Virus genome (UHGV): UHGV-0212524
Strand: one strand, 5' to 3'
Origin: a virus
DNA: 64,000 nt
Position 1 is the first letter of the stretch. The number at the start of each line of letters is the position of its first letter. Positions 14,575 to 54,046 of this stretch are shown here, piece by piece. The notes beneath the pieces are model-generated. The model made no database searches. It was given only the letters and a program-made list of their open reading frames with translations, and was not told the origin of the DNA. The position numbers and the translations under genes were made by a program.

Positions 14575-14619
14575 TCAGATATATATTACCTAGGGGAGAG
14601 CGAAATTTACATTCGCTCT
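14575..14619 (+). promoter_or_regulatory. conserved promoter-like motif with stem-loop (copy 1 of 4)
   Basis: TCAGATATATATTACCTAGG followed by inverted repeat AGAGCGAA..TTCGCTCT; directly after a terminator. Confidence 0.5.
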
Positions 14620-14744
14620 ATTAGTTATAGCCGAAAGGAGGATTAGTTCTATCACCCGTATTATCTGTTCTGGTGAATTGGGTGAAGATAAAAAATCGTG
14701 TTTGATAAATTAGTTGAAGACTACGTTAAGAAAGAGGGACAATT

Positions 14745-15188
14745 ATGAAACCAAATACTACTAACGGCATTATGTTACTTTGTGATTCTGAAACGTTAGC
14801 AAATCGTATTCGTGGTTTGATGCAAGTACGTTGGCAGCAAAAGGTTTGCGTGGACTATGCTGCACCGTTTGTTCACGTTACCTGGCTACCAGAAGCTAAC
14901 GATTTTAAAGAGAGTATAACCACGAGAAGAATTAAAGATTGGTTAATGGCAATCATTAACAAACGGATTACCGTTATCAATTTCCAGTTGTTCGGTAGTA
15001 AAGAAGAACACGATACCTTAAAACGCTGTTTAAGGGGATTGGATCTTGCCTTTTCTGTTCGTGGAAACTGTTACACAGCGTTCTTCATCGGTTCTCTTGA
15101 GTTATTTCAGGGAACATTAAACATTCAACTAAAAGAAGATTACGGGATCGTAAATAAGATTGATTTCGAATTCCCAGCAATGATTTAA
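14745..15188 (+). CDS. hypothetical protein
   Basis: 147-aa ORF; AGAGGG RBS; first gene after terminator and promoter-like motif. Confidence 0.55.
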   Translation: MKPNTTNGIMLLCDSETLANRIRGLMQVRWQQKVCVDYAAPFVHVTWLPEANDFKESITTRRIKDWLMAIINKRITVINFQLFGSKEEHDTLKRCLRGLDLAFSVRGNCYTAFFIGSLELFQGTLNIQLKEDYGIVNKIDFEFPAMI

Positions 15189-15199
15189 GGAGGAGTAGC

Positions 15200-16042
15200 A
15201 TGTTTCAGTTCGAACTCACCGAAGAAGAAAAGGTTATCAACAAGTTTAAAATTTCCCCTATCCCTACTGAGGATCAAATTAAAGAAATCACTGAGCTACA
15301 AAACACGTACACGTTTTACTATAAAGTTAAATCAGAAGCGTTTAACATTTTCTGGGTAGAAGGCGAGGTCGATTTCCCTAACAAGCTCATTAGTGCGGTT
15401 ATGGATATTTTAGTACGGGCTGTTGAGACGCCTAAAGATCCAGAAATTCCGGATCAAATGACTTGTAGGCTAAAAGACAAGCCAACTGCGAAAGACGTCG
15501 CTTACTTCACAGACGAGATTCCACTTACCCCCAAACAGGCAGGTAAAATCGGTTCGATATTATACCTTTTTTACAACGACAAATTCACTTATCTGGTTGA
15601 AAACAACGTGCTTAAAGTGAACTATGAAGGTGCTACTTATCGCGCTTTTTTAAATAACCTATTGAATGACATAGAGAAAGAAAATATTCTGCTATTTACA
15701 GTTGAGGATATTAGCGAGGCCGATGCTGCCGAGTTTATTCGCGCAGTGAAAGATGAACACGAACACCATCTATTTATAATTTATCAAAGCAAATATCTTG
15801 AAGGTAACCTGAATCTCTTGATCCCAAACAAACCATGGGTTCTTAAAGTTCTGGAACCCCTTGCGCAGAAAATTAAGAGAGATGGTGAATATTTTAAACA
15901 CGTTCTCAAGAAATACGAAAAAGAAATCAGCGAACGACTTTCACGCCACTTTTTTGGACAGCTAGAAGCTCACGTTGGCGAATACGCCCAGCTGTTTGAT
16001 AGATTTTGTAACGAGATGAGAGAAGTTCGGAATCTTAAATAA
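15200..16042 (+). CDS. hypothetical protein (EAD..EF.R motif family)
   Basis: 280 aa; AGGAGG RBS; VEDISEADAAEFIRAVKDEHEH resembles repeats in 20001..21167. Confidence 0.55.
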   Translation: MFQFELTEEEKVINKFKISPIPTEDQIKEITELQNTYTFYYKVKSEAFNIFWVEGEVDFPNKLISAVMDILVRAVETPKDPEIPDQMTCRLKDKPTAKDVAYFTDEIPLTPKQAGKIGSILYLFYNDKFTYLVENNVLKVNYEGATYRAFLNNLLNDIEKENILLFTVEDISEADAAEFIRAVKDEHEHHLFIIYQSKYLEGNLNLLIPNKPWVLKVLEPLAQKIKRDGEYFKHVLKKYEKEISERLSRHFFGQLEAHVGEYAQLFDRFCNEMREVRNLK

Positions 16043-16084
16043 CGAAGGCTTAATTACCCCACTATTTACCTAAAGGAGCATTAA

Positions 16085-16600
16085 ATGTCTGTAACAATCA
16101 ACATGAATCTTTATACCAAACGTGAACGTCAAATCTTGGCTAATCAGCCAGGTGTTACTACGATTGACGGTAAACCTATCGACCCATTAAAAGTCGTTGT
16201 CGCACACAACTGTTTCGAGAAAGACTGGGACATCATGTATTTCCGTTGCCGTTCTGTCGCCAACGCACTTACCCAGCTCTCGAATTATCATCCTGGCCCA
16301 GTATTAAAAGACTGGGTTTGGTTAGTCCCTAAAACACCTTCAGCGATTGAGTATCCGTCGGGTATGGTCTATATTCGTCCTGTCGCTTATCCAGAACGTT
16401 TAAAAGAATATCTGGAGGTTATCTGGGACCGACCTCGTAAAGAGCTGGTGACGATTATCCGTTTACTTCAAATGTGCGATATCCCCAATGTTTCGAATCT
16501 GAAACTTACGTCTCGCGATATTAACCAGGCTTACTGGGAACTAGAGTGGACAGAACCGAAATTCGAAAACACTAACCGTATTTTCTTGCACCGGGGGTAA
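16085..16600 (+). CDS. hypothetical protein
   Basis: 171-aa ORF with AAGGAG RBS. Confidence 0.55.
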   Translation: MSVTINMNLYTKRERQILANQPGVTTIDGKPIDPLKVVVAHNCFEKDWDIMYFRCRSVANALTQLSNYHPGPVLKDWVWLVPKTPSAIEYPSGMVYIRPVAYPERLKEYLEVIWDRPRKELVTIIRLLQMCDIPNVSNLKLTSRDINQAYWELEWTEPKFENTNRIFLHRG

Positions 16601-16602
16601 AA

Positions 16603-16884
16603 ATGTTAGATTGGTTGTTGGGTTTAATTAACTCACGTCAACAGGAGCTTTATAAAGAAAACACGCGGTTACGGCAGCAGCTTAGTAACAATCGTCAAAC
16701 CAAACGACAGTTAATTCGGATGGTAAAACAACAGGCGCGCTGTATACGCGATATCGATTATCAGTATCACCGTCTGAATACCTTAGACCCAACAACAAAA
16801 GCTTTAGGCAGTACGATTGGACACGCACGGAAAGTCAGTCACGACGCGTTAGTTCGAATCGACACAATAGAAGAGAAGCTGTGA
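16603..16884 (+). CDS. small coiled-coil protein
   Basis: 93 aa; heptad-like Q/R/L-rich N-terminus; start 3 nt after upstream stop. Confidence 0.5.
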   Translation: MLDWLLGLINSRQQELYKENTRLRQQLSNNRQTKRQLIRMVKQQARCIRDIDYQYHRLNTLDPTTKALGSTIGHARKVSHDALVRIDTIEEKL

Positions 16885-16926
16885 TATAACCCCTCTCAGG
16901 AATTCCTGAGAGGGTGGAGTAACAAT

Positions 16927-17301
16927 ATGTCATTACTGTTATACAAATTCAGATGTTGGCTAGACACCTCGTTTAAAACCTGGGCTTGTGGTGAGAATGT
17001 CAGAACGATCGTTAAAGCAACAGACTGGTATACCGAAATTGTGGTACTCCCTGACGGTAAACTAATTAATGTTCAGGTACGCAATATCACCGTCAGGATA
17101 GGTCGTAAAGGCGGTGCTATTTTTCTTCCCGAACTCTATCTGGTTTCTGCATTGGAACTGAAAGCAGGACCGATGTTATTTGGTCGAACAGCGCAACACT
17201 ATTTCGATACGCTTATTAAACTTAGTAATAGTGTAAAGAAATTAGGTGAGTCGGTCCATAGATTTATTAAAGAAACTGAACGAACTACGGTGGAGATTTA
17301 A
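16927..17301 (+). CDS. hypothetical protein
   Basis: 124-aa ORF; GGAG RBS. Confidence 0.55.
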   Translation: MSLLLYKFRCWLDTSFKTWACGENVRTIVKATDWYTEIVVLPDGKLINVQVRNITVRIGRKGGAIFLPELYLVSALELKAGPMLFGRTAQHYFDTLIKLSNSVKKLGESVHRFIKETERTTVEI

Positions 17302-17304
17302 AAG

Positions 17305-17613
17305 ATGGAAAGTAAAATCACGAACACATCAGCACCTGAGAACATTGTCAACTATATTCTCAGTGGCGGATTGTTAGAAGACAATAAAGAAACGTGCGAT
17401 AAACTCGTTTCTCAACTACTGCCGATTCGTTCAGAATACTGCGAAGTCGTTATCTTGGGTTCTGAGTATTGCGTACGTTCTTACTGTCGTCGTTTCGAAG
17501 CCTTACGTGTTCCACGTACGTTAGGTGGCGTGATACTCTTAGTCTCTAACTTTCACAATGCACACGTTCGTGTTGCAACCTGGATTGCTAACGGTGGTAA
17601 CAATGGTTTTTAA
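17305..17613 (+). CDS. hypothetical Cys-containing small protein
   Basis: 102 aa; several Cys (CDK..CEVV..YCVRSYC). Confidence 0.5.
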   Translation: MESKITNTSAPENIVNYILSGGLLEDNKETCDKLVSQLLPIRSEYCEVVILGSEYCVRSYCRRFEALRVPRTLGGVILLVSNFHNAHVRVATWIANGGNNGF

Positions 17614-17911
17614 ATTGTTAGGTTTCGGAAAATGCAAAGAGTGTGCAAAGCACGAAGAATATATCAAGTTATTAGAAGAAACAGTTGAAACGCAAAAAGA
17701 ACTTATCTCTGAATACCGCGCGAAAACCGGTTCAGTGGAATATCTGACCATCCTTGTTTGTGCTATTGCTGAATTGGGTTGTGAGGGAAAATTACCTAAA
17801 GAAGAGATATTAAAATTATTAAAAGAAAAAACAGAGTTCTACCGTAAAGAAATTGATGATTATAAACGTGAAGTTATAAGAGCGAATTGGGAGGTTATTA
17901 ATGAAGCGTGA
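17603..17911 (+). CDS. hypothetical protein with N-terminal CxxC
   Basis: ATG at 17603 overlapping upstream gene end; KCKEC motif; Lys/Glu-rich. Confidence 0.45.
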   Translation: MVFKLLGFGKCKECAKHEEYIKLLEETVETQKELISEYRAKTGSVEYLTILVCAIAELGCEGKLPKEEILKLLKEKTEFYRKEIDDYKREVIRANWEVINEA

Positions 17912-18182
17912 AACGGTTGTATTTCGTAGTAATGGTGATGTGGTTTTGTATCGTGGTAAGAAACGTATTCGTACGTTAGAATACCGAGAAGCAAAACGTT
18001 TTGTTGAAGAGTGTGCATGGTTAATGCATTACGAAGGGAACTATCGTGCTATCTTAGAAGCACCGCGTTTAGAACGTGCGGTTGCACAGATGGCGATAGG
18101 TAATCCTAAGAACTGTTACCTGGCACGTAAGCCAAAATACCTACAGCGGCTTTCGTTAGGTAGCTTTATTGCGGGGTTTTAA
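17901..18182 (+). CDS. hypothetical protein
   Basis: 93-aa ORF; GGGAGG RBS. Confidence 0.5.
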   Translation: MKRETVVFRSNGDVVLYRGKKRIRTLEYREAKRFVEECAWLMHYEGNYRAILEAPRLERAVAQMAIGNPKNCYLARKPKYLQRLSLGSFIAGF

Positions 18183-18193
18183 TAAAAATAATT

Positions 18194-18255
18194 TCAGATA
18201 TATATTACCTAGGTGAGAGTTCAGCTACTCTCACTTAACTAAAACCATTTTAGGA
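18194..18255 (+). promoter_or_regulatory. conserved promoter-like motif + stem-loop + conserved 5'UTR/RBS (copy 2 of 4)
   Basis: TCAGATATATATTACCTAGG + GTGAGAGT..ACTCTCAC + CTTAACTAAAACCATTTTAGGAG immediately before ATG 18265. Confidence 0.55.
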
Positions 18256-18264
18256 GCATATACC

Positions 18265-18759
18265 ATGAACTTCACTAGACTTGATTACACTAACGAATTA
18301 GTTGACAAAGAAAAATACAAATTCACCGTTGACTTGGGTTACGGATTACTGGACGTAGAAAAAGATGTTCTGCACAAAGAATTCCGTGAGCAGTTCGGTG
18401 CTTTGTTCTGCGCAGGTTTCCGCAGAAACACTATTGATATCGGTTACAGCGCAACAGCGTATACCGATGAAGAAATGTTTAAGCTGGTAACACAGATTAT
18501 CGGAACGCGTGGAGCTAATCGTCTTAATTATTCCAACGAACTTGTTTCGAAAGAGCATTACAAGTTCACCGTTAGACTACCTGCACACCTCACAGAAGAA
18601 GATAAGAACATCCTCTACAAAGCCCTCCAAACCGAATTCGGTAAATCGCTCAAAGTAGGGTTCCGTAGTCGTAGTATCGATATCGGAATTAGTGTGGATG
18701 TGTGTAGTGACGATGACCTTTACGAATTAGTTTCGGAAGTTATCGGAAAACATCTCTAA
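18265..18759 (+). CDS. hypothetical protein made of two tandem ~80-aa repeats
   Basis: 164 aa; halves align (L.Y.NELV.KE.YKFTV.L...GFR.R.IDIG......D..L..LV...IG); preceded by conserved promoter-like motif. Confidence 0.6.
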   Translation: MNFTRLDYTNELVDKEKYKFTVDLGYGLLDVEKDVLHKEFREQFGALFCAGFRRNTIDIGYSATAYTDEEMFKLVTQIIGTRGANRLNYSNELVSKEHYKFTVRLPAHLTEEDKNILYKALQTEFGKSLKVGFRSRSIDIGISVDVCSDDDLYELVSEVIGKHL

Positions 18760-18805
18760 ACCTAAATTAACACTTCGACTTGTAAATCTAAAAGGAAAAA
18801 TAAAA

Positions 18806-19570
18806 ATGAAAACTATCGAATTCAAAAACAGCAACGTACGCGAGCAAGGACACATTATCACGAGCTTCCTGAAAAATTCTACACCGCATTTAGCTTATCA
18901 ATTCTACGGGAACGAACTTAAGATTGCCGGTTTTGATGAAGTTGAATTAAATAGGGCAAACGAATTCATTACCGACGTTATTGCCGACGAAGCTACCTGT
19001 TTAGTTCTGAACTTTGTTAAACCTGGAGAAGACATAAAGTCTGCCGAGAAGTTATTTATGGCAGTTTCTGAGAAACTATACGGTATCGTTGAGGTTGATA
19101 GCAATAACTATATTGTTTATTTTAAGCATTCTCCAAAGAAAAACCTCACTAAACTCAGAGAGTTTTTTGAACACAACCCTTCATACTGCGTAGATCTTTA
19201 CACCCTCGCTTACGACGGAAAAGTACATCCTAACAACCTTATTCGTTATGACTATATTCCGCATGTACCGGGAAGATTCGAGGCTACGGAATGGTTCTTA
19301 TTACACAAAGATCGGATTGCTTATTACAATTACGAAGAGATCAAAGGAATTGTAGACAAAATCAATGACGACTACTTACAAACTCGCGAAATGTTTTGCG
19401 TGACTGTAAGAGCTAACGGATTAACTTCGTTCACTTGTGACAACCGCGTCGGTCGTCGCGTCTACGATCTGCTAATAAAGGAACTCGACAAACTTACTCC
19501 GGTAAAAGTTGGTGTTAACTATTTAAATTGGATAAAGGCAGGATTAATTGATGAAAACCCTAAATTCTGA
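18806..19570 (+). CDS. hypothetical protein
   Basis: 254-aa ORF; AAGGAAA RBS. Confidence 0.55.
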   Translation: MKTIEFKNSNVREQGHIITSFLKNSTPHLAYQFYGNELKIAGFDEVELNRANEFITDVIADEATCLVLNFVKPGEDIKSAEKLFMAVSEKLYGIVEVDSNNYIVYFKHSPKKNLTKLREFFEHNPSYCVDLYTLAYDGKVHPNNLIRYDYIPHVPGRFEATEWFLLHKDRIAYYNYEEIKGIVDKINDDYLQTREMFCVTVRANGLTSFTCDNRVGRRVYDLLIKELDKLTPVKVGVNYLNWIKAGLIDENPKF

Positions 19571-19979
19571 TTTGCGTGATTACATTCGTAAATACCCAGC
19601 CAGTATTCCGGTACTGGCTTCACTCTCTTTATCGGGTATGGACCTTAATACCTTAACGGTAGAAAAATTCCACGAAGTGGTGAAGTCGTCGTATCAAATT
19701 GTTACCGATATGTCAGTGCGGAAACGTGCTGACTACCCAGACGGCGATTTCGGTACAGAGATGTTCACAGACTACGCAGTTGCGTATCTGATGGGACGTC
19801 ACTTTATCGATAAACTCAATACGGCTGTAGAAGGAGAAACAGTCACGGAAATTGTTAATGCTTGGCAGCAACGTATTGTGAGTGACGCTTACTGTCGTCA
19901 AGCCTTAAAGAAAATGTCGGCGGTAGCATTAACCAATGACCAACGTGCTTTAGAGTTCCTTAAGCACAACTACGAATAA
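19551..19979 (+). CDS. hypothetical protein (paralog of 21237..21668)
   Basis: ~142 aa; N-terminus L..D(L/I)R(D/N)YIR..P and overall length parallel 21237..21668. Confidence 0.55.
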   Translation: MKTLNSDLRDYIRKYPASIPVLASLSLSGMDLNTLTVEKFHEVVKSSYQIVTDMSVRKRADYPDGDFGTEMFTDYAVAYLMGRHFIDKLNTAVEGETVTEIVNAWQQRIVSDAYCRQALKKMSAVALTNDQRALEFLKHNYE

Positions 19980-20000
19980 TTTACCAAAAGGAAAAGTACC

Positions 20001-21167
20001 ATGTTTAATATTGAGATTACACCGCTCGTTAAAACTGAAATCCGTCCGGTTCCTGAAGCACAGTTACTCGATCAACTTTATCGTATATTCCTGGATAAAG
20101 GTGTGCATTTCCGTGTAGAACAAGTCAACGATGAAAGCATCGTGTTCTACTGGACTCACAGCAACGATTACCTTTGCGACACTATCGCGGTGGAAATCGG
20201 TGAGTTGCTCAACCCGGTAGAAACAACCGAGACAGAGCAACCGAAAGTCGAAGAGCAGCAGAAAGACGAACCGCACGTCCTCTGGTACGAAGGCGAAAAG
20301 ATTAAGGATATTAAAGAGGCGTTAGAGACCTTCTATCCCGATGATTTAGGCATTTACTGGGATAACAGCAAACTCGTCGTTCGATTGAAGAATGACGATC
20401 GTAACCTCATGGAAGAAGTACGTTCTGTCGCTGAGCTGATCGATAACGACACCGTTCGACTTATTTCGTTTCAAGGTATCGGAAAAGGTGAAGCGGACGA
20501 ATTCATGCGTATAGTTGTTCACGAACACAAGGAGAAAATTCGCCAGTCTAATTATGCTGGCGATACTCTAACTGTGCTTGTTGATAATGACCCTGTTGTT
20601 ATTAATCAACTGAACATCTGTATGCGTAAGTTAACAAAGAAAATTTTTCTTAACCAACTCGAAGAAGGGGAGCAACCGCGTGAAGAGTCCGATGTGTTGA
20701 AAGCCTTTACATACACTGGTCCAGATGCCGAAGCGATTAATGACACTTTGACAGCATTCTATTCTACCAAGGTAGAGACCAAACTCGAGGGCGAAAAACT
20801 CACCTTTAAATGGAAATGGTGGAACATTGCTTTTGAAGAAGAAATTCATAGTCTCATTAATGAGATTGTTGACAACCGTCTACGTCTTCTAACAATCACT
20901 ACTATTGGGAAAGAAGATGCCGATACGTTTATGCGTGATATCACTCGTTGGTTTCCTGAGAAAGTCCGTCAGTGGACTTACAAAAACGATACACTTACCA
21001 TTCTACTCAACTATGAACCCGGTATTATTGGAAAGTTAAAAACTCATCTGCGTGACTTGTGGTCAGTTCGTTTTCTTAATAATAACGAGCACTTACTCGA
21101 CGCGTACTTTAGAGAAATATCTTCTGGCGTAGGTTGCAACTGCCCTAACTGTCAGAAGCATCGCTAA
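20001..21167 (+). CDS. hypothetical protein with internal duplication and C-terminal CNCPNC
   Basis: 388 aa; two copies of ..IGKGEADEFMRIVVHEHKEKIRQ..DTLTVL.. / ..IGKEDADTFMRDITRWFPEKVRQ..DTLTIL..; ends GCNCPNCQKHR. Confidence 0.6.
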   Translation: MFNIEITPLVKTEIRPVPEAQLLDQLYRIFLDKGVHFRVEQVNDESIVFYWTHSNDYLCDTIAVEIGELLNPVETTETEQPKVEEQQKDEPHVLWYEGEKIKDIKEALETFYPDDLGIYWDNSKLVVRLKNDDRNLMEEVRSVAELIDNDTVRLISFQGIGKGEADEFMRIVVHEHKEKIRQSNYAGDTLTVLVDNDPVVINQLNICMRKLTKKIFLNQLEEGEQPREESDVLKAFTYTGPDAEAINDTLTAFYSTKVETKLEGEKLTFKWKWWNIAFEEEIHSLINEIVDNRLRLLTITTIGKEDADTFMRDITRWFPEKVRQWTYKNDTLTILLNYEPGIIGKLKTHLRDLWSVRFLNNNEHLLDAYFREISSGVGCNCPNCQKHR

Positions 21168-21184
21168 TTAACTAAAATCGTCCA

Positions 21185-21216
21185 AGGGGTGGTAAACCAC
21201 CCCTCTATTATTGTAT
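21185..21216 (+). terminator. hairpin terminator
   Basis: AGGGGTGG-TAAA-CCACCCCT followed by a T-rich stretch. Confidence 0.6.
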
Positions 21217-21236
21217 TTACCTAAAGGAGCATTAAA

Positions 21237-21668
21237 ATGTTTTTCGTATTAAAAGATGATATCCGTAACTACATTCGCAACAACCCGATTGCCCTGGGCG
21301 TTTTAGCAGGTTTCTGTCGTCCAAATACTGATTTCGATTTAGTTAAGTTAGAAGAATATCAGGAAATTGTGAATACTAACTACATGCACATCTGTAGCTG
21401 GGGTAAACGTCCTCGTGAAGAGTATCCCGCAGGTGAATTAGGCGACTCTATGCATCGTGACCAGAATCTGATGCACGAATTCGTTGAATACACACTGGAA
21501 AATCTTAACTATCCGCTTTTAGTCGACACTGTACCAGAAATGGTTGACGAGTGGTTAAGTCGTGTTTACAACGACCCTACTGCCAGCACTCTACTGAGTC
21601 AGATGTCGCAAACTTCTCGTGATATCGACACCCGGACCCTGATGTACCTAGCACACAACGTTCGCTAA
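21237..21668 (+). CDS. hypothetical protein (paralog of 19551..19979)
   Basis: 143 aa; AAGGAG RBS; terminator follows. Confidence 0.55.
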   Translation: MFFVLKDDIRNYIRNNPIALGVLAGFCRPNTDFDLVKLEEYQEIVNTNYMHICSWGKRPREEYPAGELGDSMHRDQNLMHEFVEYTLENLNYPLLVDTVPEMVDEWLSRVYNDPTASTLLSQMSQTSRDIDTRTLMYLAHNVR

Positions 21669-21675
21669 CCTCTCT

Positions 21676-21730
21676 CCGCTATAGGCTTCGGTCTATAGCG
21701 GAATTAATTTTCTTTCCCTTTTCTTTTTTG
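21676..21730 (+). terminator. rho-independent terminator
   Basis: CCGCTATAG..CTATAGCGG hairpin followed by a long T-rich tract. Confidence 0.65.
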
Positions 21731-21834
21731 TTATTTTGACGCTACTTTACTTACACCCTACCCGACTATTCCTATGCTGGCTGAGGGATGTAAAACGACC
21801 TCTTAAACCTTTTTACTTACTGTGAGTTAACGCG

Positions 21835-22683
21835 ATGTCTCTTACGTCAAAACAGAAACTGCTAAAACTCATCAACACTGAAAACAATATTAGTCCACCG
21901 TTGACTTTCAGTGATGTTGATATCGGAGAACCTACCGGTACTGGGGTTGATACCCAGGTGGTTCTGACCTCTAAACTCAAAGGCGATGAGTCTACTACTT
22001 TAACAGTGACTTACCACCGTCGTAATTTACCTGACTACTTAACCGGTGAGTTGGTATTCGGTAACGACAGTGTGGTAACCGCATCAGATTTGCTTAATGC
22101 GATCAACGCAAAATACAGCCTAAATATTTTACCCTCGGATATCGTTGACGCAAAAGTTGAAGGCGAAACCCATCAGCTTACCGCTAACGAGAAATCTTAC
22201 GAGTGGTGCGGTGTAGTAACGCTTACGCTGCATGATCCTATTGACCTGACTGAACTTTTACCAGTTACTCAATTAGAGAATCTGGTAGAGTATCCGTCCA
22301 CTAAGAAAGGTAACGCTGCGGTTTATTCACACCCGATTGATTTCACCGCAGAAAAAGATTACCTTGACCCGATTACTATCAACGACACCGTAGACTTGGT
22401 AGAGTTAGCCTCTAAACTGGATGGCGTCGTTGATGAGAAATGGGTAAGTGTACCTAAGAACGCGGCTAACAACCTGTACGGTGCTAAAGTTATTTACGAT
22501 GGTCCAACCGCAGGTTACGAAGGCGCAAATACGAAGTTCACTCGTGTGTTGGTGCTAACGCTCAGCCCGCTGTGTTCTAACCTGACCGGTAACCTGTTAA
22601 TTCACTTTAACGGTACCGATCGTCCGAAGTCGAAGATTGAATTAGCACAGACTAATCCGGTCTTACCGGGATTCTTAGATTAA
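21835..22683 (+). CDS. hypothetical protein, Y.(R/N)R family
   Basis: 282 aa; paralogous segments with 22697..23176 (DLL.(A/V)IN..YSL); weak RBS. Confidence 0.5.
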   Translation: MSLTSKQKLLKLINTENNISPPLTFSDVDIGEPTGTGVDTQVVLTSKLKGDESTTLTVTYHRRNLPDYLTGELVFGNDSVVTASDLLNAINAKYSLNILPSDIVDAKVEGETHQLTANEKSYEWCGVVTLTLHDPIDLTELLPVTQLENLVEYPSTKKGNAAVYSHPIDFTAEKDYLDPITINDTVDLVELASKLDGVVDEKWVSVPKNAANNLYGAKVIYDGPTAGYEGANTKFTRVLVLTLSPLCSNLTGNLLIHFNGTDRPKSKIELAQTNPVLPGFLD

Positions 22684-22696
22684 GAGGATTACAGTA

Positions 22697-23176: not shown

Positions 23177-23180
23177 TTAC

Positions 23181-23216
23181 AGGGTGGGGGTAATCCCCAC
23201 CCTCTTTTCTTTTTTG
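23181..23216 (+). terminator. rho-independent terminator
   Basis: AGGGTGGGG-GTAAT-CCCCACCCT + TCTTTTCTTTTTTG. Confidence 0.75.
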
Positions 23217-25222: not shown

Positions 25223-25225
25223 TTA

Positions 25226-46200: not shown

Positions 46201-47620
46201 TCGCTGATTCACGAAGCAGTTTTTTCTGGGCGGTTAACGTTGCCTGCGTTGGGTACTTAGCGTTTACGTAATCGGTTAATTGCTCCTTAGTTTTCCCGTA
46301 GGCTAATGCTGCGTCGGATGCAATGCCGTTTAATTCTAACGCACGAATCGGACCCCAGGTGTCAGCGTGTGGGTTATCCTTACGGGTGACGTGTTCGTGC
46401 GCAGGCGCGTTGCGATAGAGCTGTTCTACTAACTGATGGTACTTAACGATTAACTGATAAACGTCGTTACTTACGTCTGCTTCTGGCGCACCAGGTAACG
46501 CAAGGAATTGAGCATAATCGTTCTCAGCCGCCCACCAGTTTAAGTTAACGTTGGTTTTGTACTTCAGCCACTTCGCAACATCCGTTTTGGTGTAACCTGC
46601 TGAGAATTCGTCTGGCGGTGTGTCAACGTTAAAGGTGTAGTCCATGGACTGTTTGTTAGTCGTCACCTCGATAACGTATACACCGTTACCCGGTTGACGA
46701 ACAACGCTAAACGTTAATTCGCCTTTTAATTCATCGTCGGTCAAACCGTTGATTAACGTATAATCATAATCGGTCGAACCACTGCCTAACGCAACTGTCA
46801 GTCGTAGGCTGATTTTACGTTGTTTTAATTGGAGACGAAGGATACTTGCGCCACCGTTCGCGTAGCACAACATCCAATCGATTTGTTCGTTCGGATTAAT
46901 ACTCCCCATATTCGGAAAAATAGCCGGAATACGGTATTTCATCGACAGGGAATATTCATTTAACGTGGTGGTTTTGTACGTAACGGAGAAACGGCGTTTA
47001 GCGGTATTGTAAGTATACCCACCTTTGTTGTCGTACGTTGCGTACTGTTCAGACGTGATAACCGTACCATTAGCACGATGCTCGATATCTAACGTGTTAC
47101 GTGCAATCGGGTCTACCCGATTCACCACGTTACCTAACGAATCACCTAAGCCTGCAATGGCCTGCATTAATTCCAGTTCACCTTTCCAGTTTTCCCAGTC
47201 GAACTGAATATCGACCGGTGGAAAGTAAACTTCGCCGATAACGGTATCCCATTGACACGCAGACGGGTATTTATCTTTATTGAGTTCGCGTTCTGCGGTA
47301 ATCTGTTCTTGGGTCGCTTCACCACAACCTACGGCGTGGTAATCTACCGTGAAATTCGATTTGTATTTGTCATTAACAATCCAAATCATCCCGTGCACGA
47401 GATAGGCTGTGCGCAACATACCGGTCTCGTACGGGTGTGTAATAACGTAATCGTCGCCTAAGGTCAGTATTTTGCCGCCGCTCTTGACCACCAGGGATGT
47501 GGTGAAAAAAGGGGCGTGGGCAGGTACCAACATTCGGTACTTCGTACCAATGACGGCGACCGCTTCACCGGTTATTTTATTCCCCGGTTCTTTGAAGTGT
47601 GGGTCTAGGACGACAGCCAT
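43298..47620 (-). CDS. giant tail fibre/baseplate-like structural protein (1440 aa), first gene of minus-strand operon
   Basis: N-terminal PAHAPFFTTSLVV......GDDYVI module; 10-nt gap to next gene. Confidence 0.75.
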   Translation of the reverse strand: MAVVLDPHFKEPGNKITGEAVAVIGTKYRMLVPAHAPFFTTSLVVKSGGKILTLGDDYVITHPYETGMLRTAYLVHGMIWIVNDKYKSNFTVDYHAVGCGEATQEQITAERELNKDKYPSACQWDTVIGEVYFPPVDIQFDWENWKGELELMQAIAGLGDSLGNVVNRVDPIARNTLDIEHRANGTVITSEQYATYDNKGGYTYNTAKRRFSVTYKTTTLNEYSLSMKYRIPAIFPNMGSINPNEQIDWMLCYANGGASILRLQLKQRKISLRLTVALGSGSTDYDYTLINGLTDDELKGELTFSVVRQPGNGVYVIEVTTNKQSMDYTFNVDTPPDEFSAGYTKTDVAKWLKYKTNVNLNWWAAENDYAQFLALPGAPEADVSNDVYQLIVKYHQLVEQLYRNAPAHEHVTRKDNPHADTWGPIRALELNGIASDAALAYGKTKEQLTDYVNAKYPTQATLTAQKKLLRESASKNVNGTITTLPGFTSFTTEVDPVSMSKYVSPYFSESYVSSGHRYHGALRYTGTKSGFSANFNAVPANLQDIDFIVTGRKTASGNEAVGRVGFRFYENPGSNSGKYVEITGEVWSGTLTIELALHGYGSPVPAVRYISQAPNPAIPDGDFTLRFQLKRTGNVFDVVITVNSKTYSGRINFNNMDAALEALENQHHFKSLINNVADGVNISSQNKGNTVTIKKAPGVVDERRLGAQFVVDPKSIKFIGQGSTDVNVGNNPVTLQAGDNQLVLYPDDRGLLWRGKKLLDPTTVAPYLPGNTAGGTGLFYGATTATVELTGSGIKASPFVATFILPVAEDVTTLACWQLTDEFGTAENLAATPALIEKLDAEFTGKLVAAKSYINDMQLTSSVTIDKITFGLGNVANTPDVDLPISVAQQTELDKYSPKVHQHPSSVFGVANADTTKRGLIKFGLEVDDATLALDGSVVMAQTSQIEDLENTVGGVDSGARVDIIRFGKSGNDLIDVTVKDKILVTLPASTYFVGGETYDVPLMSVNVTERFPNLNKEIYAGIFVDIVDNKAKYIIHDSYSQAETDTMTRVGLIGINDLSEVFVTELRNVTRLGDFRELKDHVANDNAHIQRSASRAVLGLSNLTVGAPCWASGLQAVVRGEADWRYVVGGGYKALDGVKYDQLASKWVFDAKGVSDNVHGFIHNLFPVFNNAGMRVSWETESNAKTGTVLETILACWKNTEDEFMRLSLLITRGYRLTDSNGEYCYAGFGLNFGNGKSVVLGFTPTKRVTPAPWSTLHPDVSFTHTRGANNELTFNATLTLAGTVYTIVVYLSAADKYVSCTAAGGTTQKISLTDRLTGFNLAPIVNDPYTPIYYGLGGLYEDEVRANIRSTTDSITGNKLYGTLLDYISNYSSLNRVRVMELAGTSSDPETLNALVATEFNNSLADYAALPIPPYLNKERVMSFIDTNNKVQAVIIRD

Positions 47621-49406: not shown

Positions 49407-50372
49407 TCAGCGTGGGCCTGAAGTTGGGCCATGGACGCCGTCGTGGATGTGTACGCTGAAGGTAATACCGGAAATCACCGCATCCTTAACCGTAAAGATA
49501 CCCACGCCTTCGCCCGTACCACCGTATTTGAAGTTCTTAGCAACTTCCAAATTACCGGTGAACATCGCTTCGTTACCTTCTTGCTTAAAGTTCGGCGTTT
49601 TATACGTTGTTGAACCAGAAGCTTCAGTTAGCCAGGTTTCTGTTTTAAAGGTAACCGATTTCGACGCTTCGGTATTCCGAACTTCGCATTTCTCATTAAT
49701 CGTTTTCGTTTCCAGGTTAATCGAACGTTTTGCGTAAATGAACGCATCTTCTTTGTTGATGTTCACTTTCGAGAGCATCGCGTTCTCAAAACCTAAATCG
49801 TCTTCCACCGAGTTAATGTAATACTTATTCCCTTTATGGTCAACGCACTGCCACGACCCGTTAGCGTTATCGAATTGGAATAACCACGCCGCTTTCTCCC
49901 CATTCACCATACTTGTTCTTAGGGTAACGTGTTTGTCAATCGTTGAGACGTTTAACACATACGCGTTCGACAAGTCATCCGCCATCTGGTTTTCCGGGTC
50001 AGCCGACCACGCGTAAACCGCATCCTCTAATCGCTTAACGTTAGCGAAATTCAAATCAATCCAAAAATAAATATCAGTTTGCCCTAGACGTAGCAAGATA
50101 ACGTAATCTTCTCGCTTAACGTCTGGGGAATTAATTCGGTTGGAATTAAATTTCCACCACTTTGCAGTAATCGTGTTACCGGTTTTAATCGTTAGGTTGT
50201 CGATAGCACCCCCAGTATCGTGTACCTTTTCAGCGGTTGAGGAAACTGATTGTACAACGGTAGGGTTCGCAAAGTTGGTTTCAATTGGTATCACTTTTAC
50301 CCGATCTGTACCACGGGGTTTGTCTTCCGCGACGATACCAATCGAGAAAAAGTCAACGCTGGATTTCTCCAT
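49407..50372 (-). CDS. hypothetical structural protein with C-terminal HxH motif (possible central spike)
   Basis: 321 aa; C-terminus FSVHIHDGVHGPTSGP; assignment speculative. Confidence 0.5.
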   Translation of the reverse strand: MEKSSVDFFSIGIVAEDKPRGTDRVKVIPIETNFANPTVVQSVSSTAEKVHDTGGAIDNLTIKTGNTITAKWWKFNSNRINSPDVKREDYVILLRLGQTDIYFWIDLNFANVKRLEDAVYAWSADPENQMADDLSNAYVLNVSTIDKHVTLRTSMVNGEKAAWLFQFDNANGSWQCVDHKGNKYYINSVEDDLGFENAMLSKVNINKEDAFIYAKRSINLETKTINEKCEVRNTEASKSVTFKTETWLTEASGSTTYKTPNFKQEGNEAMFTGNLEVAKNFKYGGTGEGVGIFTVKDAVISGITFSVHIHDGVHGPTSGPR

Positions 50373-50400
50373 TAGGTCGTTCCTTAGATCGGAAATGAAT

Positions 50401-50453
50401 TCAGATATATTTTACTTAAGTGAATAGGGGCTGAACTCGCACTTCAGCCCCTA
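50401..50453 (+). promoter_or_regulatory. conserved promoter-like motif with downstream stem-loop (copy 3 of 4, diverged)
   Basis: TCAGATATATTTTACTTAAG + hairpin TAGGGGCTGAA..TTCAGCCCCTA; ~50 nt upstream of small ORF 50505..50582. Confidence 0.45.
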
Positions 50454-50504
50454 TGGGCACGTTTCTTTCGAAACGGAGTTACCATGTGATTAGGAGACAG
50501 ACCA

Positions 50505-50582
50505 ATGTCTACTGAGAAGAAAAGCGGATTGGACGAAGTCATCGTACTGTTCAAACGCTACAACCCGGCTATTCCTCGGTAA
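50505..50582 (+). CDS. small ORF (25 aa)
   Basis: ATG with AGGAGA RBS downstream of promoter-like motif; MSTEKKSGLDEVIVLFKRYNPAIPR. Confidence 0.25.
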   Translation: MSTEKKSGLDEVIVLFKRYNPAIPR

Positions 50583-50758
50583 TCATAGTATTACTTAAAA
50601 TTTACAGATTGTCCCTTTATTCTGCTACTCGGGATACCGGTAGGGGGTAGGGGGCAATATGTATACGGATATAAATAGCGGAGGTATACGTAGTATACCG
50701 ACATACTCTTCCCAGAGGAACGTAGTGACTCCCTTATTCCATTTTAGGAGAATATATC
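50583..50758. promoter_or_regulatory. non-coding region with direct repeat GGTAGGG x2 and palindrome GGTATAC-gta-GTATACC
   Basis: 176-bp gene-free stretch ahead of the 50759 paralog cluster; tandem GGTAGGG (50639..50652); perfect 7-bp inverted repeat (50683..50699); extra GTATAC at 50662. Confidence 0.35.
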
Positions 50759-51316
50759 ATGATTACTATCGAAATGAAACAACAAGCTATTGAGTTTGTT
50801 AAGCTGGGTGCAGGTAAACACCAACTTGATTATCCTTGCGTTATACAGTCTAACGTTATCCGGCCAGGTACAATGATTACCGGTCTTCAAGTTGAAGAAT
50901 TTGATGGAGATGCTGTGGTTTGGGAACGCCGTTTCTCACGACTTAATTATCATAGTGTCGGAGATAGTTTTACCGAAATATTCCGTCATCTGTTTTCCGG
51001 TACCGGATGGAAAGTAACGAGTGCGTTCTACGGTGGCAATGTTATTACCCTTCTAGACAGAGGAGATGCACGTTATCTCGTGAACTTTACTTTCGCAAGA
51101 CGCTACGCATATTTCCCTAACCCACTTACGTGTACGTTAAGTAACCCAGGAATACTACTAACAGATAAAGAAGCAGAGGCACTACTTACAGAACTGAAAA
51201 AGGACGGTTGTGATATTGATGACTGGGAAACATTGGTAGGGACAGCAAAAGCACACGGTTGGCATACAGTGCGCAAACTCGGTCAGCAACTGTTGTTCTT
51301 AGCTTATAACGTTTAA
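50759..51316 (+). CDS. hypothetical protein, GW..V...G.QLLF C-terminal module family
   Basis: 185 aa; AGGAG RBS; C-terminus GWHTVRKLGQQLLFLAYNV. Confidence 0.6.
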   Translation: MITIEMKQQAIEFVKLGAGKHQLDYPCVIQSNVIRPGTMITGLQVEEFDGDAVVWERRFSRLNYHSVGDSFTEIFRHLFSGTGWKVTSAFYGGNVITLLDRGDARYLVNFTFARRYAYFPNPLTCTLSNPGILLTDKEAEALLTELKKDGCDIDDWETLVGTAKAHGWHTVRKLGQQLLFLAYNV

Positions 51317-51345
51317 GTAACGAACAACCCTAAAGGAGAGTAAAA

Positions 51346-52497
51346 ATGCGAAATATTATTTCTAAACCAGGACATGTCAAGATCCTAAAAGAACTGATGG
51401 ACAGATGCTATAATCAGACTTGGCCTCTGCCAAGCTTAACCATCGAGTCTTCATTACAACGCGAGTTGTTTGGTTATAACTTGGGCTGCTGTGTACTGAG
51501 TGAATACGATGAGATTATCGCGCCTGTCGATGTCTGTACTTACGATGAAGAAATTGAAGGTTACCAGTTCGAGGTTTACACAAATTCTGGACTAAATTAC
51601 CGTAAACTCGTTGTTAGAGAAAAGAGTAGCGGCCGGAAGATTATGTTTAAGGTCTTCCCAAGCGGTAAAGTCAGTAGTTTATGTTTTCAGCTTGAGCAAG
51701 TGTCCTTTCACGGTGCAGCTATTTTAACTAAACCAGAACTCGCGTTATTAAGTGGGTTAATTGGTTTTGAAGCAAAAACCATCAAAGTTGAGCAGGAACT
51801 CACACGAAACGATTTCGGCTCGACCTGGTACGAAAGTTTCTTCCGCTACGAAATGTTAAGTGATAAAGCTATCAAGCTCACTTACCGTTCTACCGACGAT
51901 CTCGTTTACCACATTTTAATTAGCGGCGAACCCCACCTGATTATTGAAGACAAAGGAGAAAATCAAATGTCTGCCTTAAGAGACGAATTAGCCCAATTCA
52001 TTCGTGACGTCGAAGAGAAAAGCAAGAGCGAACACATTTTCTCACAACGCTATCCTGAACTTATTGACGAGACCACCGATAGTGTCGTCGACGGTATACG
52101 CATTTTCCCAAGTGGTCTTGCAATCTACCGACTGCCCAGCGTTAACCAGCTTAAAGTCATGGAAATGCTAAAAGACGTTTTAGCAGAAGCGGGTTGGGAA
52201 TATCGTTTCGATTGCAATTTCGAAGGGATGGCGTTATTCGTTACAAAGAAAAATTATACGTTGTCAATCGATCTGCCCAAAAGTCAATATTACAGTTTCT
52301 TCCCGAAAGCGGATGACCGCACTGAAAAAGAACCTGCGTTGTTACTCGATGCGGCAGAATCCAATACGCTAATGATGCGTCTGCGGATGGTTGACAAAAA
52401 GTTAAATACCGGCCATTTAACGACGATCGGTAAAGATTACGGTTGGAAATCTGTCGAACCGTACGGCAGTCAGCTGCTGTTTGTTGCTGACCTTTAA
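51346..52497 (+). CDS. hypothetical protein, GW..V...G.QLLF C-terminal module family
   Basis: 383 aa; AGGAG RBS; C-terminus GWKSVEPYGSQLLFVADL. Confidence 0.6.
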   Translation: MRNIISKPGHVKILKELMDRCYNQTWPLPSLTIESSLQRELFGYNLGCCVLSEYDEIIAPVDVCTYDEEIEGYQFEVYTNSGLNYRKLVVREKSSGRKIMFKVFPSGKVSSLCFQLEQVSFHGAAILTKPELALLSGLIGFEAKTIKVEQELTRNDFGSTWYESFFRYEMLSDKAIKLTYRSTDDLVYHILISGEPHLIIEDKGENQMSALRDELAQFIRDVEEKSKSEHIFSQRYPELIDETTDSVVDGIRIFPSGLAIYRLPSVNQLKVMEMLKDVLAEAGWEYRFDCNFEGMALFVTKKNYTLSIDLPKSQYYSFFPKADDRTEKEPALLLDAAESNTLMMRLRMVDKKLNTGHLTTIGKDYGWKSVEPYGSQLLFVADL

Positions 52498-52523
52498 TAA
52501 GTGAAAATACACTTTCTCTAACT

Positions 52524-52547
52524 GCCGCGCTTTAGTCGCGGCTTTTG
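52524..52547 (+). terminator. rho-independent terminator
   Basis: GCCGCG-CTTTAGT-CGCGGC + TTTTG. Confidence 0.6.
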
Positions 52548-52564
52548 TTAAGAAGGAAATAGAA

Positions 52565-53338
52565 ATGAAAGTCCATTTAGACGATATCTTTAAAACCGAA
52601 CCGTATATGATCGAAGGCCCGCTAACGTCGCTACTATTTGCCGATAGACTAGATCGAACGTTGCAATTACAATCGGTCGAATCTGCACCGATTAACGATG
52701 TAGAGCGCTACGAGCGCATCAACCATACGCGGGGTGAGTATCGTCGCTATAAGCCAAACTCACTAACCATCAAGCTTTGGAAAGTGAGCACAGGTAAAGT
52801 ATTAACTTATCGCGCTGTTGGTAGTTATTACATTCAACAGGCCAAAGAGTGGTTAGAAAAAGTTAAAGAACTGAACTTCGATCTACTGAGCAAAAAACTG
52901 CGCGATCATAACGCCAGTTTGCCGATACGTAATTATTTCTCCACGATTGAAAATAGTCGTTGCTTCGTTTCCAGCAAGTCTATGATATCGCCTGGGGCTG
53001 ATGTTCAAACAACACTGAAAGATGTGATTGTGAAGAAAATCTTTCATGAATCTGAACACGTTGGATTTCGTATCTATTTAACGCACAAGAGGCCATTTAC
53101 CGTGATTCATGTTGTTACCGCACCCGAAGGCTCGGCAGTCGTACGTGAACTTCCTGACGCACGTGACCGTAGCCCTAATGAGCCACTTTACTTAATGTCA
53201 GGAACAAAATCAGAATCTTTGATGTCCCGTTACAGCATGGTTGATGTTGTTGATACTGCTATGAAGTTAGGTTGGAAAGAAGTACAGCAGCACGGCAAAC
53301 AATTGCTGTTTATCGCAGATGTAAATCTCAATAACTAA
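52565..53338 (+). CDS. hypothetical protein, GW..V...G.QLLF C-terminal module family
   Basis: 257 aa; C-terminus GWKEVQQHGKQLLFIADV. Confidence 0.6.
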   Translation: MKVHLDDIFKTEPYMIEGPLTSLLFADRLDRTLQLQSVESAPINDVERYERINHTRGEYRRYKPNSLTIKLWKVSTGKVLTYRAVGSYYIQQAKEWLEKVKELNFDLLSKKLRDHNASLPIRNYFSTIENSRCFVSSKSMISPGADVQTTLKDVIVKKIFHESEHVGFRIYLTHKRPFTVIHVVTAPEGSAVVRELPDARDRSPNEPLYLMSGTKSESLMSRYSMVDVVDTAMKLGWKEVQQHGKQLLFIADVNLNN

Positions 53339-53350
53339 AGAGGTGGTACC

Positions 53351-53929
53351 GTGTACCGATTAATAGAAATGAGAAAAGACGTTTGGTTGGAAAACCTCGT
53401 CGATGGGGAGCTTGAGGGAATAGAGCTTTCCTTACCAGAGAGAGCGGACACGGTATTGGCCTTTCTGGTAAAACAGGCAGACCGTGAGCCGGTAGGAATT
53501 TTCACTGTGGACTATAAAGATCCGCGAGGAATTCATTTACGGAACATTTGCAGTGGTTTGGAAAACTTACCGGCTAATCCGTTCTTAAACTACGCAAAAC
53601 GTAAACTCCAACCGGGACAACACCTCTGGGTAACGTTATCGCCTGACGTTAGGATCATACGTGACGATTACTCGGCGTTTGTACAGGCAACGAAAGTCAG
53701 TCTGTATAACCCGAACGCAGAGCGTACCGATATGCCGTTTATAATTACCTTAGAAGACGATGGAACGCAAGAAGGTATCGAGGCAATTACGGAATTAGTA
53801 AACTCTTATCCGGTTGCCACTATCGAGATAGAAAACCCAAGCCGTTTACAATTGGGTGACCTGCTCGAATGGATCGAACTGAATACAGAATTCTTAATCA
53901 ATTCTCGTCAGTATCGATTCGACGTTTAA
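53351..53929 (+). CDS. hypothetical protein
   Basis: 192 aa; GTG start with AGAGGTGG RBS; terminator follows. Confidence 0.5.
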   Translation: MYRLIEMRKDVWLENLVDGELEGIELSLPERADTVLAFLVKQADREPVGIFTVDYKDPRGIHLRNICSGLENLPANPFLNYAKRKLQPGQHLWVTLSPDVRIIRDDYSAFVQATKVSLYNPNAERTDMPFIITLEDDGTQEGIEAITELVNSYPVATIEIENPSRLQLGDLLEWIELNTEFLINSRQYRFDV

Positions 53930-53933
53930 CAAC

Positions 53934-53962
53934 GGTGGGGTGTAAACCCCACCTTTTTTTTG
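53934..53962 (+). terminator. rho-independent terminator
   Basis: GGTGGGG-TGTAAA-CCCCACC + TTTTTTTT. Confidence 0.8.
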
Positions 53963-53984
53963 TTCTCTAACATTAAAAATAATC

Positions 53985-54046
53985 TCAGATATATATTACT
54001 TAGGTGAGAGTACAAAAGCTCTCACTTAACTAAAACCATTTTAGGA
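53985..54046 (+). promoter_or_regulatory. conserved promoter-like motif + stem-loop + conserved 5'UTR/RBS (copy 4 of 4)
   Basis: TCAGATATATATTACTTAGG + GTGAGAG..CTCTCAC + CTTAACTAAAACCATTTTAGGAG before ATG 54056; near-identical to copy 2. Confidence 0.55.

Follow-up and report, generated by a model that had tools for sequence, protein, structure and literature searches.

The virus genome UHGV-0212524 contains four co-oriented copies of an A/T-rich motif, each followed directly by a stem-loop, within a stretch of 64,000 nucleotides (nt) that was analysed here and is called the window below. Taking the evidence from sequence comparison together, we consider it highly probable that these repeats are early promoters of a virion-packaged multisubunit RNA polymerase (vRNAP) and that the hairpin is a structure selected on the sense strand. 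Judged by its proteins, the source of the window is a phiKZ-related jumbo phage that groups with SPN3US and the Erwinia jumbo phages, with relatives of ~240 kb. The promoter class is already known. New are an instance of it in an uncultured relative of SPN3US and the explicit consensus that can now be given for the clade.

The repeated motif and its counterparts in other jumbo phages

An earlier sequence-only reading of the window had described four copies of the motif, one of them diverged. Both statements were borne out. There are exactly four matches to TCAGATATATATTACYTAGG at ≤3 mismatches, all on the + strand, compared to a chance expectation of 0.01 in dinucleotide shuffles. Three of them have no mismatch (14575-14594, 18194-18213 and 53985-54004) and the copy at 50401-50420 has two (TTTTAC and TAAG). 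A position weight matrix (PWM) derived from 38 related copies ranked the same four sites alone above the shuffle maximum and detected no weaker copies, and a covariance model of promoter plus hairpin returned these four sites and no others. The wider motif search that had been proposed, run on the window with both models, therefore added nothing to the four.

The window consensus of the motif is AAAAATAATTTCAGATATATATTACCTAGGTGAGAG. It is composed of an A/T-rich tract at about -35 to -22, a near-invariant block TCAGATATATATTAC at about -21 to -7 and a subsequent CTAGGT; three copies contain ATATATATTAC and copy 3 contains ATATATTTTAC. Upstream of the core the PWM consensus reads GATTAAAAATAATT, and copy 1 has a T-rich version of this tract. 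Copies 2 and 4 share 86% identity over an 84-nt stretch that begins 13 nt before the motif and extends up to the ATG, and differ mostly in the hairpin loop, while identity beyond the ATG is only 38%. This agrees with the earlier description of the two copies as near-identical through stem-loop, 5' untranslated region (UTR) and ribosome-binding site. The predicted promoters and hairpins are as follows:

14560-14596, + strand: early promoter copy 1 (predicted), T-rich tract and core TCAGATATATATTACCTAGG (14575-14594), predicted start G 14596; pattern, PWM and covariance model
14597-14619, + strand: hairpin of transcript 1, 8-9-bp stem and 7-nt loop; -10.6 kcal/mol, z = -3.2
18181-18215, + strand: early promoter copy 2 (predicted), A/T tract AATAAAAATAATT, core 18194-18213, predicted start G 18215
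18215-18232, + strand: hairpin of transcript 2, GAGAGT/ACUCUC with 6-nt loop; z = -3.9
50388-50422, + strand: early promoter copy 3 (predicted), variant core TCAGATATATTTTACTTAAG (50401-50420), predicted start G 50422
50424-50454, + strand: hairpin of transcript 3, 12 bp, G+C-rich, at +3; -20.1 kcal/mol, z = -5.0
53972-54006, + strand: early promoter copy 4 (predicted), A/T tract, core 53985-54004, predicted start G 54006
54006-54023, + strand: hairpin of transcript 4, GAGAGU/GCUCUC with 6-nt loop; z = -3.9

The motif has its match in the early promoters of phiKZ-related phages, which the paper on the Klebsiella jumbo phage N1M2 tabulates as predictions, with the consensus sequences TBYAWWWWWTTTCARRYAKATATTATYWAAGTGWA for N1M2, BSHAWWWWWTTTYARRYAKATATTATYWWADTG for OBP, TTAWTAVAA_HYWTTTRARR_BTATATTACDWHDGTG for 201phi2-1 and TATATTAC for phiKZ. 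The window motif can be aligned with the published sequences base for base (WWWWWTTTCARRYAKATATTATYWAAGTG; ..TATATTACDWHDGTG; TATATTAC), and its copies contain the conserved A/T-rich element of ~10 nt (TATATTAC/ATATTAT type) centred near -10. In AR9, differential RNA sequencing (dRNA-seq) and primer extension established the early consensus AAATATATATTAT-(6N)-G(+1), and according to the same paper transcripts of phiKZ and phiR1-37 likewise start 6 nt past the element. All seven phiKZ sites that we read in the first 50 kb of that genome consist of TATATTAC, six bases and a G, with T as the sixth base in six of the seven. The window copies have the same geometry, TATATTAC-CTAGGT-G, and the arrangement N5-T-G recurs in 4/4 window copies and in 41/41 distinct copies from relatives. 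By homology, the starts are thus predicted at the G residues 14596, 18215, 50422 and 54006.

According to a review, every jumbo phage that encodes RNA polymerases has a conserved motif that can be found ahead of its presumed early operons, and wherever transcripts were profiled this motif was the early promoter, centred near -10 and used by the vRNAP. For phiKZ, a T-rich motif was reported upstream of -19. In phiKZ, AR9 and phiR1-37 the class is transcribed by a virion-packaged multisubunit RNA polymerase; such an enzyme is most likely the polymerase here as well, and therefore the four sites are most likely early promoters. The suggestion of the sequence-only reading, one phage-specific promoter class with the A/T-rich core as a -10-like element, fits the published consensus and geometry. 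Similar to the window, the promoters of phiKZ, 201phi2-1, OBP, EL, N1M2, phiR1-37 and AR9 combine an A/T tract, an TATATTAC/ATATTAT block, six bases ending in T and G(+1), and the phiKZ-related early promoters are likewise dispersed, co-oriented copies ahead of small-gene operons with none in structural blocks. The window motif differs from them in its longer and stricter block TCAGATATATATTACYTAGGTGAGAG, with ~26 near-invariant bases across several phage genera, and the number of copies per genome is 12 in SPN3US versus 28-32 reported for phiKZ.

A 5-kb query covering copies 1 and 2 gave DNA matches in 50,697 phage records that were confined to 40-55 nt of the copy-2 motif. This stretch is 89-97% identical in 44 jumbo-phage records (~197-250 kb) from Salmonella, Erwinia, Escherichia and Proteus hosts. 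As the motif is the sole match at the DNA level in these records, it must be far better conserved than the surrounding genes. The exact 20-mer occurs at 37 IMG/VR loci, all but one of which (a 7.4-kb fragment) are on contigs of 107-246 kb, and has zero occurrences in 185,579 bacterial and archaeal genomes (one per species). Collection scans with A/T-rich patterns of 14 specified bases (CAGATATATATTAC; ATTTAARNNNTATATTAC) yielded, among the matches listed, mostly unrelated contigs, and literature searches for the extended motif returned nothing on phages.

The complete genome of SPN3US contains 12 copies at ≤6 mismatches to a 24-mer consensus, compared to 0-3 in shuffles, and 12/12 are on the + strand and intergenic, ahead of + strand genes. 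They fall into two sub-types, the window type ...ATATATTACYTAGGTGAG and an OBP/N1M2-like type ...ATAGATATTATCTAnGTGA. By gene order, the copies at 109891, 113984 and 165685 hold the positions of window copies 1, 2 and 4, the landmarks being the site after the tail protein, ~4 kb further on, and the end of the baseplate-proximal + strand block, respectively. One SPN3US copy is located ~2 kb upstream of a gene annotated as 'RNA polymerase beta subunit'; since this subunit is outside the five virion subunits, it presumably belongs to the non-virion enzyme.

Five IMG/VR contigs match long stretches of the window at 82-96% identity, and contigs of this similarity encode a protein that is 76-77% identical to SPN3US gp241. 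In the SPN3US virion paper, mass spectrometry identified gp241 as part of the virion RNA polymerase, an enzyme of five subunits that is ejected with the DNA. A virion-packaged polymerase with split beta/beta' subunits is thus present in the lineage, and for the genome of the window itself its presence may be extrapolated from these relatives.

Within the window, the four copies all face right into + strand blocks of mostly small genes without a family match, and the 23-kb minus-strand structural block has zero copies. The motif thereby gives a high-confidence map of predicted early transcription units, four in the window and 12 in SPN3US, and the map points to first-expressed genes without assigned function, which are candidates for host take-over or anti-defence. 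Furthermore, a long and strict promoter shared by phages whose proteins are ~50% identical lends itself well to biochemical and structural studies of virion RNA polymerases.

The hairpin at the predicted transcript start

The stem-loop that the sequence-only reading had noted behind each copy was recovered in all four cases, with folding z-scores between -3.2 and -5.0 relative to shuffles. Its further proposal, that the hairpin forms the 5' end of the transcript, is supported by the geometry of AR9, phiKZ and phiR1-37, which places +1 on the first G of GAGAG. We assessed the hairpin by folding individual sequences against shuffles and by covariance-model alignment. In a set of 41 distinct copies (window and relatives), RNA from +1 to +30 had a mean z of -2.27 versus dinucleotide shuffles. 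A hairpin of ≤ -3 kcal/mol begins at predicted +1 to +3 in 33/41 copies, as opposed to 27% of random 30-mers from the same genomes, and all four window hairpins begin within this interval. The base of the stem is semi-conserved (GAGAG/CUCUY), whereas the inner stem (+4 to +9) comprises 27 different hexamers in the 41 copies; stems range from 5 to 12 bp and loops from 3 to 11 nt. As the copies vary in the lengths of stem and loop, no consensus structure emerged from a gapless alignment of all 41 with MAFFT and RNAalifold.

When 46 distinct copies were aligned with the covariance model, 87.6% of cells paired, compared to 73% in shuffles (0/500 reach this value). Changes on both sides were found in five of eight pairs, and registers slid along the stem were 33-73% paired. 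Four orthologues of copy 3 were aligned without fitting to a structure and display three separate GC-to-AU compensatory changes in the 12-bp stem, with 97.9% of cells paired versus 21-46% in slid registers and a freely varying loop. A compensatory change is also present in the copy-1 orthologues of L019 and L029 (GCGAA/TTCGC to GTGAA/TTCAC). Since the stems vary and yet stay paired, with compensatory changes, the hairpin is selected as a structure.

The strand on which it acts is suggested by two asymmetries. The sense strand out-folds its complement in 32/41 copies (Wilcoxon p = 1e-4), and among 25 G·U pairs in the hairpins the G is in the 5' arm in 22. In the covariance-model alignment, the stem is closed by G(+1)·U in 28 copies and by G-C in 15. 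The G·U excess assigns the selected structure to the sense strand, which would be RNA or, less likely, non-template DNA.

Several other assignments were considered and dropped. The hairpins of copies 2, 3 and 4 are absent from the output of a scan for intrinsic terminators, which listed the one of copy 1 only with a weak tail (ATTAGTTATA). A role as attenuator was likewise rejected, as the stems are A/U-rich, have no proper U tract and lie too near to +1; in addition, transcription would already have passed the short T run before a hairpin at +1 to +20 could form. The window hairpins, with their position at +1 to +31 and loops of 3-11 nt, do not correspond to hairpin promoters of the N4 type. 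A second small hairpin over the Shine-Dalgarno sequence in leaders 2 and 4 (CUAAAACCAUUUUAG) was discarded because the orthologous leaders of L006 and L019 differ there. Rfam produced no match in the window, nor around copy 3 at relaxed thresholds.

In contrast to its clade-wide occurrence here, a +1 hairpin was found in only two of the seven phiKZ early promoters sampled. It is therefore a feature of the enterobacterial clade that the promoter class does not need. The literature on jumbo-phage early promoters that we searched, outside the primary phiKZ paper (PMC4178840), contains no mention of a +1 hairpin, so that as far as this literature goes the hairpin is a previously unreported, clade-specific addition.

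Alternative readings and a possible role of the hairpin

Several observations weigh against vRNAP early promoters with a selected sense-strand hairpin. The +1 position and the label 'early' are transferred from phiKZ, AR9 and phiR1-37 by homology of sequence and context. An RNA polymerase gene is not present in the 64-kb window, the polymerase being seen in close relatives only. Copy 3 deviates from the consensus at two positions, though it is conserved in relatives; because a single deviation from the consensus can switch off the virion polymerase of AR9, this copy may be weak or inactive. The gene block of copy 2 includes a virion-structural paralogue, which is atypical for an early gene. 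Regarding the hairpin, the covariation count was obtained from an alignment fitted to the structure, which favours structure, and the GC-to-AU compensatory changes fit RNA and DNA alike, so that the G·U excess alone discriminates between the two. Finally, its occurrence in phiKZ shows that the hairpin is not consistent within the promoter class.

The repeats could instead be strong host sigma-70 promoters, in which the TATATT contained in the core would be the -10 element and the upstream A/T tract an UP element. A consensus scan flagged copy 2 as TTAATA-16-TATATT with 9/12 matches, and the jumbo phages RSL2 and RSF1 fail to multiply in rifampicin although they encode RNA polymerases. However, copies 1, 3 and 4 are unlisted in that scan, a conserved -35 element is absent, and sigma-70-like sites are unenriched in these regions (6 vs 11.6 expected, 7 vs 9.3). 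The near-invariance also covers bases that sigma-70 does not read, namely the upstream TCAGA and CTAGGTGAGAG at -6 to +5. Absent from the 185,579 cellular genomes, the 20-mer is nevertheless 89-97% conserved across phages of four host genera with proteins only ~50% identical, and the geometry is common with Pseudomonas and Bacillus jumbo phages, whose early transcription needs no host RNA polymerase. We consequently regard sigma-70 recognition as very improbable. The same holds for the idea that the repeats serve another phage factor, either a non-virion RNA polymerase (nvRNAP) of a middle or late class or a DNA-binding regulator, with the hairpin as a protein-binding palindrome. The structural paralogue downstream of copy 2 would be in line with it, as would the unexpected genes driven by some promoter classes of 201phi2-1, but known nvRNAP promoters look different (TATG at the start for phiKZ late, a weak AT-rich element at -24 for phiKZ middle and AACA-N6-TA/G for AR9 late). 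The motif, in turn, fits the early consensus position by position and is lacking from the minus-strand structural block. The arms moreover vary in sequence, length and loop (3-11 nt) while they stay paired and use G·U, which argues for a nucleic-acid structure and against a fixed protein-binding palindrome. That the repeats are primarily recombination or mobility joints of exchangeable gene cassettes, with promoter activity being secondary, is in our view extremely improbable. The mosaic composition of the copy 4 region might be taken to favour such joints; repeats of 40-70 nt would, however, serve homologous recombination whatever their function, and the mosaic is therefore no argument against a promoter. 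Recombinase or endonuclease genes are absent next to the copies, and joints would not account for the strict orientation to genes, the fixed distance to the Shine-Dalgarno sequence and ATG, and the match to mapped promoters.

The hairpin could also act in DNA, as a part of the promoter: as in phage N4, it would be extruded from supercoiled or single-stranded non-template DNA, and the injected polymerase would recognise it there. The N4 vRNAP, another virion-packaged polymerase that is injected and works with a small hairpin, as a rule uses hairpin promoters; GC-to-AU compensatory changes fit DNA as well as RNA, DNA hairpins tolerate G·T pairs, and the non-template DNA strand is the sense strand too. 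The N4 enzyme is nonetheless a single-subunit, T7-like polymerase, and its DNA hairpin is upstream of the start, centred near -11, with a stem of 5-7 bp and a 3-nt loop, whereas the hairpins here lie wholly downstream of the predicted +1 and bear the marks of RNA structure. Promoters of the same class work without a hairpin in phiKZ (2/7 have one). Furthermore, the stem starts exactly at the predicted first transcribed base, as expected for a structure of the RNA 5' end and for no evident reason in the case of DNA, and the terminal pair is more often G(+1)·U (28 copies) than G-C (15). A DNA hairpin thus seems rather improbable.

If the repeats are vRNAP early promoters, the injected virion-packaged multisubunit polymerase would read each site and start at the next G, six bases past the core. 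Transcription would run rightward, independently of host RNA polymerase and in the first minutes after infection, into + strand genes that are mostly small. The transcript would begin with GAGAG..., and its first 18-31 nt would fold at once, with 0-2 unpaired bases at the 5' end. Such a hairpin could shield the triphosphate 5' end from RppH and from the 5'-end-dependent decay by RNase E, and this protection would matter most for early mRNAs, which would be made before any phage countermeasure. Provided that the promoter reading is correct, we tentatively put the chance that the hairpin shields early mRNAs from 5'-end-dependent decay at slightly less than even, by analogy to E. coli. Stem-loops at the 5' terminus are an established stabiliser of mRNA in this bacterium (Emory 1992, Bouvet & Belasco 1992, as listed in PMC3997798). 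The ompA and papA leaders resemble the leaders described here in that the hairpin is preceded by no more than ~2 unpaired bases and is conserved in position and variable in sequence, and the hosts are in both cases enterobacteria with RNase E and RppH. Unlike in ompA and papA, the hairpin here is class-wide, tied to one type of phage promoter, and has the semi-conserved stem base GAGAG/CUCUY.

The late promoters of the T7 group have a conserved initially transcribed GGGAGA and stem-loops in the 5' leader. As in the window, where the purine-rich start is GAGAG, the conserved block runs through +1 into the transcript and is followed by a stem-loop. T7 RNA polymerase, however, is a single-subunit enzyme made after infection, in contrast to the presumed multisubunit and virion-packaged polymerase here, and there is no sequence similarity between T7-group promoters and the window motif.

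Alternatively, the hairpin could assist the virion polymerase in promoter escape or in displacing the RNA, or it could be a recognition or export tag on early transcripts. In its strictest form this would make the +1 hairpin an obligatory signal of the SPN3US/Erwinia clade that marks the transcripts of the virion polymerase. The injected enzyme might require it to escape from the promoter or to release the RNA, or a phage or host factor might read it as a tag and route early mRNAs out of the early-infection vesicle, in which the injected DNA is transcribed. We consider such an obligatory signal unlikely. A 2026 review on jumbo phages describes the exit of mRNA from this vesicle as an open question. 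The 5'-terminal hairpin may offer a handle on the survival, and possibly the routing, of early phage mRNA in the first minutes of infection, and it could be used as a portable 5' stabiliser in enterobacterial expression cassettes.

Genomic context, possible cassette exchange and further elements

The surroundings of the four copies comprise the following features:

14529-14557, + strand: intrinsic terminator, 13-bp stem and T run, which ends the upstream tail/tail-fibre block; terminator scan and sequence
Leader of copy 1, + strand: 150 nt, up to ATG 14745
14745-18182, + strand: operon 1 downstream of copy 1, eight small open reading frames (ORFs) without assigned function
Leader of copy 2, + strand: Shine-Dalgarno sequence near 18251-18256, ATG 18265
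18265-26980, + strand: gene block downstream of copy 2, ORFs mostly without assigned function
21835-22683: virion-structural paralogue inside the copy-2 block, 3.6 kb downstream of copy 2
50505-53929, + strand: genes downstream of copy 3, namely a 25-amino-acid (aa) ORF, 50759-51316, 51346-52497, 52565-53338 and 53351-53929
53934-53953, + strand: intrinsic terminator GGTGGGGT..ACCCCACC plus T8, right before copy 4; terminator scan
Leader of copy 4, + strand: copy-2 type, ATG 54056
54056-63965, + strand: gene block downstream of copy 4, small ORFs without assigned function and an SbcC-like gene (57963-60485)

The sequence-only reading had placed each copy just after a terminator and before a gene start and had regarded the downstream genes as dispersed accessory genes. 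A preceding terminator is present for copies 1 (14529-14557) and 4 (53934-53953). Copy 2 abuts the stop codon of the ORF 17901-18182 without an intervening terminator, and copy 3 is likewise without one; it occupies the intergenic space between divergent genes, next to the baseplate gene 49407-50372, which is on the minus strand and starts at 50372. Its variant core is kept exactly at the same site in three related contigs. The position before a gene start does not apply to copy 1, whose 150-nt leader has no gene start next to it. The term accessory genes proved too narrow, as the fourth operon includes the SbcC-like gene and SbcC is listed among the essential genes identified in SPN3US.

Family matches identify ORF 4722-7727 as a tail protein, 49407-50372 as a baseplate assembly protein and the large minus-strand ORFs (33822-47620) as paralogous virion proteins. 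The latter are three consecutive giant paralogues of 1728, 1394 and 1440 aa with N-terminal and central domains in common, which correspond in size and position to SPN3US gp168-170. These are described in the SPN3US virion paper as baseplate/tail-fibre candidates of paralogue family C. For the 1394-aa ORF, proteins of Erwinia phage Asesino and Salmonella phage SPN3US were the best matches (47-52% at the aa level, full length).

Copy 4 is located in a mosaic region (53925-54454). Up to GGTGAGAGT, terminator and promoter correspond to the orthologous site of the relatives L002 and L021. The leader (54007-54046) is of the copy-2 type, with the hairpin allele that L006 and L016 have at their copy-2 orthologue. 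Behind it, the first gene (54056-54427) matches, with about half of the residues identical over 101 aa, a gene behind a different promoter copy in L031; in L002 and L021 this place is taken by an unrelated gene (MKIFTSFLIG...), and from 54454 on the sequences are homologous again. The repeats of promoter, leader and Shine-Dalgarno sequence look like joints for swaps of early-gene cassettes between sites and phages.

The leaders show further peculiarities. In many copies of SPN3US and Erwinia phages a second motif, (A)ATCGAC(C/T)AT(C/T)AAGGAG or ...CGACCATTTAACCTAAAGGA, is found just ahead of the start codon (L003, L005, L008, L011, L012, L014, L015, L022, L023, L030, L032, L034, L036, L037 and L038), and window leaders 2 and 4 have the related version ACCATTTTAGGAG. 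It may extend the ribosome-binding site or act as an enhancer, specifically for the first genes of early operons. In the leader of copy 1 (14630-14745), L019 has an ATG after AAAGGAGGATTAG that opens a small ORF (MYHPYYL...). The window has TTC in place of this ATG; the start codon is therefore lost, which leaves the 150-nt leader to ATG 14745. At SPN3US 165685-165785 (L156 ~15985-16085), a further hairpin, which resembles a terminator and has a T run (GGCTACCTTCGGGTAGCC TATTCTTTTTT), comes after the +1 hairpin of an early promoter, within the leader and ahead of the gene. By analogy to what has been described for 5' UTRs of phiKZ, it could be an attenuator or a source of short RNAs.

Copy 3 is directly followed by a 25-codon ORF (50505-50582, MSTEKKSGLDEVIVLFKRYNPAIPR) with a good Shine-Dalgarno sequence. 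Its length and the pattern ...EV..LF.RY.P..PR are kept in L159 (MFAEQKDGIEEVVRLFRHYSPYLPR) and L161 despite many substitutions, and it is absent from the relative L160. It probably encodes a real early micro-protein. Further downstream, a non-coding element at 50641-50712 (GGTAGGGGGTAGGGGG...GGAGGTATACGTAGTATACCGACAT) precedes gene 50759. It is single-copy in the window and conserved in SPN3US at ~161480-161550 (GGGGGTAAGGGGG...GGAGGTATCCGTAGGATACCGACAT), at the syntenic place beside the baseplate gene. Its palindrome reads GGTATAC-GTA-GTATACC in one and GGTATCC-GTA-GGATACC in the other, which constitutes a compensatory change. The element had no match in Rfam and could be another type of promoter or a regulatory RNA.

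A radical-SAM gene (28228-29562) is part of the minus-strand ORF run 27049-31377 that adjoins the structural block, and this region is syntenic with SPN3US, where two radical-SAM genes lie at 140024-142139. Between the tail protein (4722-7727) and copy 1 there is a tail-fibre gene of 1488 aa (7806-13054), for which SPN3US has no gene at this place. Over about half of its length it is 50-58% identical to fibres of P1, P2-like phages and the jumbo phage Goslar, and it looks like a horizontally acquired host-range module.

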